The notes below the pieces were generated by a model. It saw only the letters and a program-made list of their open reading frames with translations, did not search any database and was not told where the DNA came from. This document shows positions 9,692 through 15,647 of a stretch of 64,000 nucleotides of DNA, one piece after another. A program made the translations under genes and the position numbers. The DNA lies in assembly GCA_033549025.1 (NCBI GenBank), contig JAWSUS010000004.1, forward strand, positions 1-64,000, in the 5' to 3' direction. How positions within the stretch are numbered: position 1 is the first letter of the stretch; every line of letters starts with the position of its first letter. Source of the stretch: Desulfuromonadales bacterium. Its GTDB lineage: Bacteria; Desulfobacterota; Desulfuromonadia; Desulfuromonadales; SZUA-540.

Positions 9692-10459
9692 CTAAAACCC
9701 AGCTTTCGGCGTGACGGTCACGCGTTCCGAGAGGGCGCTTTCGACCTCGGTGGCCTGCTGCCGGACGATGAGACTGACGGCATAGGTCAGGGGCGTGCCG
9801 TTGTCGCGGCCGTAGTCTTCGAACCGGGGCTCGGTCAGGGGTTGCCGGTTGACCGGGGAGGCGGCGACCCGGGCGGGGTCGGCGTGACGATAAAGGCGAT
9901 AGCCGACCACCTCTCCTAAACTGGCGTCAAGAACCGGCGCTTCCCACTGCAGGCGCACGAGATGGTCCAGCCCTTCGGCCGTCAATCCGGCGGGAGCCGG
10001 CGGCGCCGGGTAGACGATGCGGCTCAGGCTGGACGGGGCGCCTTCGTGATCGCGCGCCGTAAAAGGCACGATGCGGTAGCGGTAGCCGGTTTCCGCCTGA
10101 ACCGCGTCATCCACATAGGTCAGGCGGCTGCCGTCCCGAATGACCCCGCGTGGATAATCGAGGTCGACCTCCGTCAGCAGCACGGACAGGTCGCGGCAGT
10201 CCGGGCATTCCTGCCCGGGGACGAAGGGCAGGCGGAAGAGGCGGAAACCCTGCAGATCGGTAAGGGGCGTGCCGTTCTGGTTCGCCGTCGGCACCTCCCA
10301 GGAGAGTCGCAGGGATTCCCCCTGCTGCTGCAGACTGACGTTGGCCGGGGCGGCCGGCAGGGGCAGCTCCAGAGGTCGCACCGGTCCCTTTTTGCCGCAG
10401 CCGGCCAGCAGGGCGGTCAGCAGCAGGGCAGTCAGGCCAAGGCAACGCAGCGTCTTCAT
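9692..10459 (-). CDS. Lipoprotein with LptM/YifL-like N-terminus and two fibronectin type III-like domains
   Basis: LLAG-CGKKGP lipobox motif; PAAPANV..LSWEVP..GFRLFR..YRYRI and PPAPAGL..LQWEAP..GYRLYR..YAVS FN3 patterns. Confidence 0.78.
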   Translation of the reverse strand: MKTLRCLGLTALLLTALLAGCGKKGPVRPLELPLPAAPANVSLQQQGESLRLSWEVPTANQNGTPLTDLQGFRLFRLPFVPGQECPDCRDLSVLLTEVDLDYPRGVIRDGSRLTYVDDAVQAETGYRYRIVPFTARDHEGAPSSLSRIVYPAPPAPAGLTAEGLDHLVRLQWEAPVLDASLGEVVGYRLYRHADPARVAASPVNRQPLTEPRFEDYGRDNGTPLTYAVSLIVRQQATEVESALSERVTVTPKAGF

Positions 10460-10464
10460 CGGGG

Positions 10465-11841
10465 CTAGACCAGTTCCTGGCGGGCGCGGGCGATCTCGCG
10501 CTCCACCGCTTCACGGGCGGTGCCGCCGGTAGCGCGGCGGGCGTTGACGGAGGCCTCCAGGGTGACGAAGTCGTAGATATCCTCGCCGATCAGCTCCGAG
10601 AACTGGCGGAATTCATCGAGGGTCAGCTCGGGGATGTCCTTGCCGTGCTCGATGCAGTAGCGCACCGTCTTGCCCACCACTTCGTGGGCCTGGCGGAAGG
10701 GCAGCCCCTTGCGCACGACGTAGTCGGCCACATCGGTGGCGGTGGAGAAGCCGCGGGCGGCGGCCACTCGCATGTTCTCGGCCTGCACCTTCATCTCGGC
10801 GATCATGTCGGCGAAGATCTTCAAACTCCCCTTGACGGTGTCGATGGTGTCGAACAGGGGCTCCTTGTCTTCCTGCATGTCCTTGTTGTAGGCCAGCGGC
10901 AGGGACTTCATCAGGGTCAGCAGACTGATGAGGTTGCCGTAGACCCGGCCGGTCTTGCCGCGCACCAGCTCGGGGACGTCGGGGTTCTTCTTCTGCGGCA
11001 TGATGCTGCTGCCAGTGCAGAAGGCGTCGGTGAGCTCGATAAAGTGGAAGTCGGCGGAGGACCAGAGGATGAGCTCTTCCGACAGGCGGGAGAGGTGCAT
11101 CATCAGGATGGCGCTGGCGCCGCAGAACTCCAGGGCGAAATCGCGATCGGAGACCGAATCGAGGCTATTGCGCGTGACGCCGTCGAAGCCAAGCTGTTCG
11201 GCGACGAATTCGCGGTCGATGGGGAAGGTGGTCCCGGCCAGGGCCCCGGCCCCGAGGGGGAGCACGTTGAGGCGCTTGAGCACGTCGGTGATGCGGCCGG
11301 CGTCGCGCTTGATCATCTCGAAATAGGCGAGCATGTGGTGGGAGAAGAGCACCGGCTGCGCCGTCTGCAGATGGGTATAGCCGGGCATGATGACCGCCAG
11401 GTTCTGCTCGGCCTGCTGCAGCAGCGACTCCTGCAGGCGGCGCAGGTAGCCCAGGATCTCCTTGAGCTCGTCGCGCAGGTAGAGGCGTACGTCCAGAGCC
11501 ACCTGGTCATTGCGGGAGCGGGCCGTGTGCAGCTTGCCGCCGACGGCACCGATGCGCTCGATAAGGCGGGCCTCGATGTTCATGTGGATGTCTTCCAGGG
11601 AGACCTTGAAGGCGAAATTGCCCGCTTCGATGTCGGCCAGGATGCCCTCCAGACCGCCGATGATCTGCTCGGCGTCCTCGGCGCCGATGATGCCCTGACG
11701 GGCCAGCATGCGGGCGTGGGCGATGGAGCCCTGGATATCGTAGCGGTACATGCGTTTGTCGAAATCGATGGAGGCGGTGAACTCTTCCACAAATTTGTCG
11801 GTGGGCTGGGTAAAGCGCCCGGCCCAGGGTTTTTCACTCAT
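10465..11841 (-). CDS. argH: Argininosuccinate lyase
   Basis: [27 protein letters not shown] and [12 protein letters not shown]. Confidence 0.97.
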
Positions 11842-11903
11842 GATGTCTGTGCTCCATTTCAAGGTTTCATGGCGGTCCCGGGGGACCGTCTCAGTTTGAA
11901 CCG

Positions 11904-13031
11904 TTATTCGCTAAAAACGCGCTGCCAGCCCTGGTTATCGTCGGGCTGGAAAATGCTGTGCACCCGTAGCGGAACCCGCGTGGTGCGTGGATCGAGCTCA
12001 TGGAAAACCGGCAGGTTGAAGTAGTAGAGGCGGGTACCGGTGCCGAAGCGCATGCGGCAGACGGGGAGACCGCCGAAGTCGTCGGTCTCGAACTCGGCGA
12101 ACTGCTTCTGCTTCATCTTGTGATTCTCGTGGATGATGACCGAGGAGCGCCCGAAGGTGGCTTCGGGGGTGCTGCCGCTGCCCGTGGTCTCGTCCGAGGT
12201 GTTGCAGAAGACGGTGATCGAGTCGCGCACGCCGGGATGCTGCGACAGGTACTCGCCGTAGTAGCCGTTGACCACGTCGCGAAAGGCGCGGTGTTCGGGT
12301 TTGGGGTTGCACTCGAGGACCGCCAGCAGGTCGAGGCGCTGGCGCGTCTGAAAAAAGAGTTCGTTGGCCTTGTCGATCAGGACGCTGATGTTCGACTGGT
12401 AGATGGTGCGGTAGATGTAGTCGAAGCAGATCAGAGCCATGAAGTTGAAGGGGTTGGGGTGGCAGTGGAACAGAGGAAAGACCTTGCCCCGATAGAGATC
12501 GTGCAGGGCGTCGGGGTTCTCCTCGGCAAAGTAGGGGTGGCTCTTGGCTTCGAGAAAGACCCGGACCTTGCCATCGGCCTCCTTGACGGCGATGACCGCC
12601 CAGTTGGCCGGCAGCTGCTCCACGTCGCCCGCATCGATATCTTCGAGCACCTGGGCCAGCGCCTCGGCGTTGTCCTCCCGATAGCGTTCGAGCACCTCTC
12701 GATAATCGGCCAGCGTCGTGTGCTCGACCCCGAACATGGTCACCGTGTTGTTGTGAAAGCGGTTGCGGATGAGATCCAGCGCTTCCTCCACCCGCTCGGC
12801 CGGTACCGTGGATTCGGGAAAGAGCAGAAAATGGAGCTTCTTGAGGTTGCCTTCACCCGCGGCCACCATTTCCAGGACCGAGCGGACCATCTCCCAGCTG
12901 GTCGTGGGTTCGGTCAGCCGGCACAGATGCTCCTTGCGCGACAGCCAGGTGGGCAGCTGGCAGACCATGCAGTGCAGATGGTGCCCCCAGGGGAATTCGA
13001 CCGACAGATTTTTCTCGACGATGCGGAACAT
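11904..13031 (-). CDS. Conserved hypothetical protein; probable divergent carbon-nitrogen hydrolase (nitrilase superfamily) fold
   Basis: LLFPE (E73), EAKSHP (K163) and ALICFD (C202) in nitrilase triad order. Host-like codon usage, inside the arg operon. Confidence 0.6.
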
Positions 13032-13045
13032 GGCCGGCTTTCAGG

Positions 13046-13540
13046 TCAGGGCGAAGGGAAGGTGCCGCCGGGAATCTCGTTTTCGATGGCGCCGAGCGGT
13101 GGCGCCTCCGCCTCGGGAAAGAGGCCGGGATAGATCTTGCCCAGGATATGCCGGGTGCCGGCCGGAATGCTCAGCGCCGACAGGTCCTCTCGTCCGACCC
13201 AGCGGGCTTCCGTGCATTCGCTGCCGTTGGGCTGCAGCTCGAAGGTCAGCGGCGCGCAGCGATAGTAGAGGATGATGAAATGATCGTTGCGCTCCCCGAT
13301 GCCCAGGCGTTCAAAGACATCAATGAGGCCCTCGACCCGCACCGCGATGCCGACCTCTTCCTGCACCTCCCGGTGCAGGGCCTCCAGGATCGGTTCGCCA
13401 TGGTCGATCTTTCCCCCGGGCATCACCCACTGACTGCAGAACGGCTCAATGCAGCGGCGGGTGAGCAGAATGCGCTCCTGCTCATCGATGATACAGGCGA
13501 CCACCGAGGTCTTGATCTGGGGCTGTTTGGCGAATTCCAT
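13046..13540 (-). CDS. Nudix hydrolase
   Basis: Nudix box GGKIDHGEPILEALHREVQEEVGI. Confidence 0.9.
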   Translation of the reverse strand: MEFAKQPQIKTSVVACIIDEQERILLTRRCIEPFCSQWVMPGGKIDHGEPILEALHREVQEEVGIAVRVEGLIDVFERLGIGERNDHFIILYYRCAPLTFELQPNGSECTEARWVGREDLSALSIPAGTRHILGKIYPGLFPEAEAPPLGAIENEIPGGTFPSP

Positions 13541-13614: not shown

Positions 13615-14835
13615 TTACTTTTTGTGCTGACGCTGAATGGCGGCGATGCGCAGGCGCAGGGCGTTGAGCTTGATGAAGCCCTCGGCGTCGGCCTGGTTGT
13701 AGACATCGTCCGCCTCGAAGGTGGCGAAATCGACGTTGAACAGGCTGTCGCTGGCCGAATCGCGGCCGACCGTGCGGCAGTGCCCCTTGTAGAGCTTGAC
13801 GCGGGCCTTGCCGTTAACGGTCTGCTGGGTCTGGTCGATCATCGTCTGCAGGGCGATGCGCTCCGGGGCGAACCAGAAGCCGTTGTAGATCATGCTGGCA
13901 TACTGGGGAACCAGAGAGTCGCGCAGGTGCATGACTTCGCGGTCCATGGTGATGGACTCGACGGCGCGATGGGCCTCTTCGAGAATGGTGCCGCCCGGGG
14001 TCTCGTAGACGCCGCGGCTCTTCATGCCAACGAAGCGGTTTTCCATGAGGTCGACGCGGCCGATACCGTGCTTGCCGCCGAGCTCGTTGAGTTTGGCCAG
14101 CAGCTTGGCGGGGGAGAGGCGCTCGCCATTGACGGCGACGGCGTCGCCCTTTTCGAACTCGATCTCGACGTATTCAGGCTGGTCAGGAGCGTCCTCGGGG
14201 CGCTGGGTCAGCACGTACATCTCTTCGGGCGCCTCGGCCCAGGGGTTCTCCAGGATGTCCCCTTCAAAGGAGATGTGCAGCAGGTTGCGGTCGGAGCTCC
14301 AGGGGAACTTCTTGCTGGTGGGGACGGGAATGCCGTGCTTCTTGGCGTAGTTCTCCAGGGCGGTGCGGCTCTTCATGTCCCACTCGCGCCAAGGGGCGAT
14401 GACCTTGATGGCGGGGTCGAAGTGGTAGTAGGCGATTTCGAAGCGCACCTGGTCGTTGCCCTTGCCAGTGGCACCGTGGGAGACGGCGTCGGCACCTTCC
14501 TTGGCGGCGACCTCCATCTGGGCCTTGGCGATCAGCGGCCGGGCGATGGAGGTGCCGAGGAAGTAGCGCCCTTCGTAGATGGCGTTGGCGCGGAACATGG
14601 GGAAGACGAAGTCGCGGGCAAATTCTTCCTTGAGGTCAAGGATGTGGCAGCTGCTGGCGCCGGTCTTCTTGGCTTTCTCGGGGATATGATCAAGCTCTTC
14701 GCCCTGGCCGAGATCGGCGGAGTAGGCCACGACTTCGCAGTCATACTCCTCGGTGAGCCATTTGAGAATGATGGAGGTGTCCAGACCGCCGGAATAGGCG
14801 AGGACGACTTTTTTGACGCTGCTTTTCTTGGACAT
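13615..14835 (-). CDS. argG: Argininosuccinate synthase
   Basis: [31 protein letters not shown] and [12 protein letters not shown]. Confidence 0.97.
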
Positions 14836-14909: not shown

Positions 14910-15647
14910 CTACAACTTTATAACATAGGTGCCGGCGATTTTATCGTGCAGGCCCTGTTTTTGCGAATCAAAGGCCACCATGAGGTAGCCGATGCCCAGC
15001 AGGATGCTGGAGACGAACTTGCCGATGGTCTCCCGCAGGAAGGCCGAACTGTAGCCGATATTGGCGCCGTCGGTGCAGATGACCTTGATGCGCACCGCCA
15101 TCTTGCCCGGGGTCTGGCCGCAGTAGCCGGTAAAGAAGACATAGTAGGCCACGGCCAGAACCATGCCGAACAATCCGGTGGTCAAACCCAGCATCAGGTT
15201 CCCTTCGCCGGAGAGATCACCGCCAGCCAGGCCGGCTGTCAGCCCGAGGATGAAGCCGAGCACCATCTGTACGACGGTCACCAGAATAGAATCGACCACG
15301 GAGGCGATGACGCGCACCCAGAAGCCGGCCTTGGGGAGCTCCGCTGCCGTGGGCGCGGCCGCCGCTGACGTTGCGGGCAAATCCTGAGCCAGTTGGTGCT
15401 GGCGCTGCTGCCATTTCTCATAGACGATGCCGCACCCCCGGCAGGAATCACCGACCGGCTGCTCAAGTCCGCAGGCCGGGCAGGTGATTTGCTTCGGCGG
15501 GGTTGCCGGCTGGGGGGATCTCTCTGCGGTGGCGTTGAAGGTAAAGACCTGACGACACTTCGGACAGGTCACCCGCGTCGGTCCGGCGGGAACTTTGGAC
15601 GGGTCGACGTCGCGGGAAAAATCGCAGTGGGGGCAGCGGATGTTCAT
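14910..15647 (-). CDS. Double zinc-ribbon plus RDD-family membrane protein
   Basis: CPHC/CPKC and CPAC/CRGC pairs; [20 protein letters not shown] and [14 protein letters not shown] motifs. Confidence 0.85.

Follow-up and report, generated by a model that had tools for sequence, protein, structure and literature searches.

The window, that is the whole stretch of 64,000 nucleotides analysed here, comes from a relative of Geobacter and carries on its minus strand, read from 13031 to 11904, an open reading frame of 375 amino acids (P0001), called the amidase below. The plus-strand reading of the same interval is interrupted by a stop codon. The gene and its closest neighbours in the arginine operon are as follows:

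11904..13031, minus strand: divergent protein with a predicted nitrilase (C-N hydrolase) fold, 375 aa, P0001 (open reading frame, AlphaFold2 model, structural matches)
13046..13540, minus strand: Nudix hydrolase of the MutT-like group with an intact Nudix box (PF00293, E 1.9e-22)
13615..14835, minus strand: argG, argininosuccinate synthase (family profile matches)
10465..11862, minus strand: argH, argininosuccinate lyase, with a probable ATG start at 11841 (open reading frame, family profile matches)

The full order on the minus strand is argB–argD–argF–RDD–argG–Nudix–ORF–argH–lipoprotein–dapA–dapB, where argB, argD, argF, and the dap genes were identified by their translations and by the same order in the Tn-seq table of G. 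sulfurreducens. The spacing of the amidase gene with the Nudix gene, argG, and argH is operon-like. A preliminary description of this DNA had put the frame between argG and argH, where it indeed lies, but it does not directly follow argG, as the Nudix gene, situated 14 nt upstream of the amidase gene, separates the two; the description had overlooked this partner, whose co-occurrence with the amidase is given below. No NCBIfam subfamily is assigned to the Nudix protein above cut-off. The operon has other passengers as well. A gene coding for a zinc-ribbon and RDD membrane protein (window 14910-15647, minus strand) is found between argF and argG in many loci of the same order, with no match in loci L125-L127 of the other order, and is a second unexplained passenger, while an LptM-like lipoprotein with fibronectin-III-like regions (window 9692-10459, minus strand) is encoded directly after argH and is widely conserved, also in NC10 loci. 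A promoter and terminator scan gave results at chance level. Contigs from RNA runs of two sediment studies match parts of the amidase gene with 98-100% identity; the expression level, the strand, and a single transcript are not readable from them, and DNA carry-over is possible.

P0001 belongs to no Pfam or NCBIfam family (Pfam gives 0 families at E<=1), and sequence searches of the PDB return chance matches alone (E 0.08-0.66). It falls below the cut-off of PF00795 and is absent from the four canonical nitrilases that a search with this profile detects in the genome of the window; a role as a stand-in for missing canonical nitrilases is ruled out by the presence of these four. The PF00795 miss reflects divergence of P0001, not another fold. 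The AlphaFold2 model built from a 117-sequence alignment (pLDDT 85.9, pTM 0.91) was compared with 48,161 representative chains, and the 24 best matches are all C-N hydrolases (Z 12.6-16.1), the next fold reaching 8.6; these nitrilases align over 209-253 residues with an rmsd of 3.2-4.4 A and 9-17% identity, and Foldseek concurs (E 5e-7). No single branch stands out as the nearest: NTA1 and XC1258 (2e11) tie at Z 16.1, NadE and Nit2 lie within 1, and N-carbamoylputrescine amidase (CPA) and D-carbamoylase are among the tied matches, the NTA1 alignments being the longest and most identical (Z 16.0-16.1, 250-253 residues, 15-17% identity). The earlier proposal of a nitrilase-superfamily amidohydrolase with the alpha-beta-beta-alpha sandwich is thus borne out by the predicted fold and by conservation, and the protein is, as had been said, longer and more divergent than typical members.

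In canonical nitrilases the catalytic Glu follows a strand, the Lys ends one, and the Cys follows another, and the layout of P0001 is alike. The motifs LLFPE (E73), EAKSHP (K163), and MALICFDY (C202), pointed out earlier, are all at the positions given for them, and the predicted features of the active site and its surroundings, all on the minus strand, are:

12813..12815: E73, predicted catalytic Glu, after strand 68-70 (167/167 family loci; 86/86 distant homologues)
12603..12731: G101-N143, two-helix insertion (helices 107-116 and 118-134), clade signature (lengths and model helices)
12543..12545: K163, predicted catalytic Lys, at the end of strand 156-164 (167/167; 86/86)
12522..12524: E170, likely second Glu of a catalytic tetrad (167/167; 83/86; Glu in 9/11 canonical nitrilases)
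12426..12428: C202, predicted nucleophile, after strand 196-200, in C-F/L/I-D (167/167; 85/86)
12291..12308: N242-P-K-P-E-H247 loop, common to Lamassu- and STAND-type domains (conservation in 86 relatives)

E73, K163, and C202 are invariant in all 117 close homologues, and together with N143, E170, E171, and D204 in all 167 unique full-length family loci, which is above chance and answers the question of conservation raised at the outset. In the 86 distant homologues N143 is kept in 86 and D204 in 85, and in the pocket loop N242 is kept in 83, P245 in 78, and H247 in 66. The loop carrying E170 (residues 167-177) is modelled with low confidence (pLDDT<50). The stretch G101-N143 comprises 43 aa in P0001 and 31-46 in all 86 distant clade members vs 11-16 in 11 canonical nitrilases, so the two-helix insertion accounts for part of the extra length of P0001. 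The motifs YxRxxxxSN, GxYGExL, and DPRxxR are invariant and family-specific.

Homologues of P0001 comprise 1017 of 4537 candidates, and the named ones are from Desulfuromonadales. The amidase was found in 31 of 41 genomes of the same order, in 190 of 301 of the class, mostly as a single copy, and in 7 of 251 of the phylum; members from more distant lineages are 38-45% identical, and one cluster includes an NC10 protein. Some genomes carry a second, free-standing copy. The gene has a GC3 of 0.85, like its neighbours, in line with native codon use, and differs from its counterpart in G001 by 38 synonymous and 9 non-synonymous codon changes, which indicates purifying selection, and its identity across 108 loci tracks that of argG and argH (r 0.82-0.86). 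Plasmids searched by tblastn with P0001 and P0177 gave no match, nor did viral contigs searched with the alignment of close family members contain a copy. The amidase is therefore inherited like a housekeeping gene, i.e., as a single copy, vertically, and with native codons. Fused forms of 710-2025 aa were not found with the close-family alignment, which is weak evidence, since a distant phmmer search did detect such relatives; four apparent fusions (P0137, P0164, P0143, and P0128) look by eye like frameshifted or mis-started gene calls. Two members carry the JGI label 'predicted amidohydrolase'. The literature search, for which subscription journals and preprint supplements were largely beyond reach, found no paper describing the family.

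The association with the Nudix gene and with the arginine operon is old and loose at the same time. In a set of 30 genomes with amidase loci all have the order argG–Nudix–amidase, followed in 28 by argH as well. Of ten genomes lacking the amidase, eight gave an argG match, and in all eight argG lies within ~400 nt of argH, with no Nudix match there. Among the 301 class genomes (Nudix orthologues called at E<=1e-45), 179 hold both genes, 11 the amidase only, 7 the Nudix only, and 104 neither; ~117 genomes with both would be expected under independence, related genomes not being independent. The corresponding figures in the other order are 94, 1, 1, and 54. The 167 unique loci, a sample biased to the best matches, fall into 132 with the Nudix and arg genes, 15 with neither, 3 with the Nudix but no arg gene (L099, L192, and L207, where the two genes are neighbours away from the arg operon; seven more have flanks too short to tell), 4 with arg genes but no Nudix, and 13 with too little flank. 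The arg position recurs in distant lineages with amidases 38-45% identical (L138-L152, L171, and L186), most of the deepest branches in the family tree have an arg link, and in the NC10 loci L181, L208, and L212 the order is argG–amidase–argH without the Nudix. Conversely, L245, L247, L250, and L253 have argG–Nudix–argH without the amidase. These locus classes, together with the loci that retain the Nudix and lack the amidase, indicate that neither link is obligatory and that both are old; the arg-operon position of the amidase is itself old, being found also in NC10, and the gene has been lost or relocated in many lineages.

Several rearranged loci deserve mention. In the family represented by L245-L256, the Nudix gene stays between argG and argH and the amidase gene is elsewhere in the genome or missing. 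In two 1.9-Mb genomes of 41% GC (L128:6956-8089 and L129:7144-8340), an amidase 40% identical, with no arg gene or Nudix nearby, sits between genes that look by eye RRM-like (RNA-binding) and RNase III-like. In the low-GC (25-30%) loci L165:277-2674 and L171:1016-3880, lspA- and lgt-like genes (by eye) replace argH after the amidase. L194:6225-7634 has an extra gene, for a 469-aa protein, between those of the amidase and argH, and in L207:1079-2005 the relocated Nudix–amidase pair has a Cas8g gene immediately upstream.

A second line of kinship, also overlooked in the preliminary description, leads to anti-phage effector domains. All 117 aligned members match the PADLOC LmuA model PDLC03850 (E 6.6e-30), the match spanning profile positions 6-305 of 604, with the LmuA C-terminal domain absent from the 375-aa P0001; hhalign of the family against LmuA-type proteins gives a probability of 99.84 (E 3.8e-30, 335 columns). 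The RT_UG5-nitrilase model is matched weakly by 71 of the 117 (best E 5e-6). Distant phmmer matches are ~600-aa proteins, many covering most or all of LmuA, and N-terminal domains of STAND-TPR/HEAT and TPR proteins, and 47 of 47 distant relatives tested match the LmuA model. The triad, the 31-46-residue insert region, and an N-x-x-P-x-H loop are common to the amidase and the immune-type domains. In both trees computed the housekeeping amidases form one clade (support 97-98) nested among the STAND/TPR-fused domains, and the whole group is split from canonical nitrilases with a support of 100. Judging from these sequence comparisons, the amidase is placed in the same nitrilase clade as the anti-phage effector domains, without their sensor modules. 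By an AU test on 40 of the 81 rows, a basal placement of the housekeeping clade is not rejected (p 0.543); recruitment may have gone in either direction, and a domestication from defence is not claimed.

With intact triads, domains of this clade head STAND NTPase-TPR/HEAT (NLR-like) proteins (P0163, P0175, P0183, P0211, P0238, P0258, and P0269) and TPR-only proteins (P0160, P0166, P0203, P0217, and P0239), and this head looks like an effector type missed by Pfam. On the viral-collection contig L218:6001-11401 a nitrilase-type LmuA (E 1.9e-194) is followed by a 1209-aa LmuB, beside a type IIG RM gene. Searches for literature linking Lamassu with an amidase, LmuA, or nitrilase effector found none; the words 'nitrilase' and 'amidase' do not occur in the main text of the Lamassu preprints, whose figures or supplements may list this effector type, 'nitrilase' does not occur in the listed part of the STAND/NACHT literature, and nothing was found on CTD3/nitrilase. 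In the part of PMC13436386 available, UG5 defence is stated to require the nitrilase Cys, and in that of PMC13275509 what the DRT1 nitrilase acts on is called open, with ATP, GTP, or NAD+ suggested as a speculation.

What is available on dispensability comes from G. sulfurreducens, in which the order is argG (GSU0153), NUDIX (GSU0154, 444 bp), a hypothetical gene (GSU0155, 1164 bp), and argH (GSU0156), as given in PMC5585712. The sizes of GSU0154 and GSU0155 and their 10-nt gap match locus L125, and, judged by gene order and length alone, GSU0155 is likely the amidase orthologue; no literature on it was found, and the matches on arg or NUDIX genes of Geobacter were off-topic. In the Tn-seq data on minimal medium (PMC5585712, Table S2), argG has 6 reads and argH 2, vs 1627 reads at 9 sites (7.7 per kb; log2 ratio +0.03) in GSU0155 and 1685 reads at 6 sites (log2 ratio -0.03) in GSU0154, and in the same source both genes meet the authors' definition of non-essential, and argB, argD, argF, argG, and argH are essential. 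The same table shows that insertions in GSU0154 and GSU0155 slightly gain during electrode growth (mean log2 +0.49 and +0.71), and that reads per site are 281 and 181 vs an average of ~1,200, possibly owing to partial polarity on argH (PMC5585712, Table S2).

Because the likely orthologue is dispensable where argG and argH are essential, the amidase is likely not a step of arginine synthesis. The preliminary description had suggested an unrecognised branch of that pathway, which does not agree with the neutrality of GSU0155 on minimal medium or with the eight relatives, of eight lacking the amidase in which argG was found, that keep argG–argH. A required step, e.g., an ArgE-like deacetylase, has its operon position and nothing else in its favour; it faces the essentiality of five arg genes around a non-essential orthologue, the many relatives devoid of the amidase, and the presence of ArgJ in all five genomes checked, with or without the amidase, and can be regarded as largely refuted. 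Replacement of ArgE is rejected on the same ArgJ distribution, and replacement of PncC/CinA by the presence of cinA in the genome of the window.

The reading preferred here, put forward tentatively, is that the amidase is dispensable and clears a metabolite in concert with the Nudix, the most likely target being an amide linked to a nucleotide or cofactor. The Nudix would open a pyrophosphate bond in a nucleotide or cofactor that is damaged or in excess, and the amidase, by analogy with the pairing of Nit with Fhit in NitFhit, might remove an amide from the same molecule or from the product of the Nudix. From established nitrilase chemistry, C202, assisted by E73, K163, and E170, would attack an amide or ureido carbonyl and form a thioester, from which water would release the product. 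This reading is favoured by the excess of genomes holding both genes (179 of 301 vs ~117 expected, in genomes that are not independent), by the eight amidase-less genomes with argG found, all also without the Nudix at the arg locus, and by the neutrality of both GSU0154 and GSU0155 in the Tn-seq data reported in PMC5585712. Against the partnership are the Nudix-only arg loci, the NC10 amidase without the Nudix, and the 15 of 167 loci with neither neighbour, and the co-loss of two adjacent genes can be a single deletion. The mostly arg-linked deepest branches favour a link to arginine, and hydrolysis of side products of ArgF, ArgG, or ArgH chemistry independently of the Nudix is a real though lesser possibility. 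Candidate substrates are, for example, homocitrulline formed when lysine is carbamoylated, further N-carbamoyl amino acids, and cyclised argininosuccinate. Such repair would suit the 136 of 167 loci adjoining argG or argH (132 with the Nudix and 4 without), the arg position in distant lineages and in NC10 without the Nudix, and the known ability of nitrilases to hydrolyse ureido groups, with CPA and D-carbamoylase among the fold matches. It is harder to reconcile with the 104 of 301 class genomes that have neither gene, all eight checked still having argG–argH, with 18 loci outside any arg context, and with the unrelated passengers (the RDD protein and the LptM-like lipoprotein) that persist in the same locus; no structural carbamoylase branch stands out, and a literature search on homocitrulline repair found nothing. 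As the Nudix–amidase pair also leaves the arg operon as a unit, the evidence for side-product repair is not stronger than that for the Nudix link, and the two readings could become one if by-products of ArgF and ArgG are what both enzymes clear.

A bolder version of clean-up with the Nudix, which we consider rather unlikely, places the amidase at the housekeeping end of a so far undescribed nitrilase branch whose other members would be the toxic heads of Lamassu and of NLR-like (STAND) proteins, and has it act together with the Nudix on the very compound, an essential amide of nucleotide or cofactor type, that those heads would destroy. It is quite unlikely that the amidase is itself a silent, sensor-less Lamassu-type effector against phage or stress, triggered in trans, with the Nudix as its regulator or antidote. 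The PDLC03850 match of all 117 members, the hhalign probability of 99.84, the pocket loop in common, and the need for the nitrilase Cys in UG5 (as stated in PMC13436386) are compatible with such an effector, and neutrality in Tn-seq fits a defence gene in phage-free culture; yet there is no LmuA tail, the genome of the window yields no LmuB beyond a 72-position match to an ATPase motif (E 3e-4), the gene keeps a constant place in a biosynthetic operon and follows vertical descent, and neither plasmids nor viral contigs yielded a copy. Moreover, the 120 neighbours of 22 non-arg loci include no Lamassu or STAND partner, one adjacent Cas8g and otherwise generic matches being all that was recorded, so the non-arg copies do not sit in defence islands. 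Deamidation of a protein or peptide (N-terminal Asn or Gln, as by yeast NTA1) instead of a small molecule is less probable still: the NTA1 alignments are the longest and most identical, and the family-specific invariant residues could form a macromolecular interface, but the Z scores are within 1 of those of small-molecule amidases (2e11, NadE, and Nit2), and no gene for proteolysis or the N-degron recurs as a neighbour.

Whichever reading applies, the family numbers more than 1,000 sequences, escapes Pfam and NCBIfam, and is likely present in the model organism G. sulfurreducens. A soluble, dispensable, and genetically tractable amidase with the same pocket loop makes the question of the defence-nitrilase substrate testable, and a new reaction of metabolite repair may come to light as well. 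Should the same-substrate version be true, it would offer a non-toxic, stand-alone means of finding out which compound the defence nitrilases hydrolyse, and an example of traffic between bacterial immunity and core metabolism; if the protein is merely a generic amidase riding in the operon, its value is that of annotation.

Compared with solved nitrilases (XC1258, NTA1, NadE, Nit1/Nit2/NitFhit, AmiE/AmiF, D-carbamoylase, and CPA), P0001 is alike in its predicted fold. It has the E-K-(E)-C residues in canonical order and secondary-structure positions, with C-x-D after the nucleophile, but adds a helical insertion of ~30 residues, the N-P-K-P-E-H loop, and a longer C-terminus, at 9-17% identity. 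The DRT1/UG5 RT–nitrilase systems, Cys-dependent in their nitrilase part, show a weak HMM likeness to the family and are far more distant from P0001 than LmuA; P0001 has no RT domain, and no reverse transcriptase is fused or adjacent to the amidase at the window locus or the relatives' loci examined. The N-terminal domains of STAND-TPR/HEAT and TPR-only proteins fall into the same nitrilase clade, nearest to the housekeeping family in both trees, and differ in being fused to putative sensor modules, whereas P0001 stands alone. The N-terminal domain of Lamassu LmuA (the nitrilase-type form, for which we take 'Lamassu-Amidase' to be the DefenseFinder label) is homologous to full-length P0001, with the triad, the insertion, and the pocket loop in common. 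Lamassu, however, has in addition the LmuA C-terminal domain and LmuB/LmuC. P0001, without the LmuA tail and LmuB and with the Nudix gene, argG, and argH as neighbours, is not a member of Lamassu, and its gene is a single-copy, vertically inherited part of a biosynthetic operon, not of a defence island.
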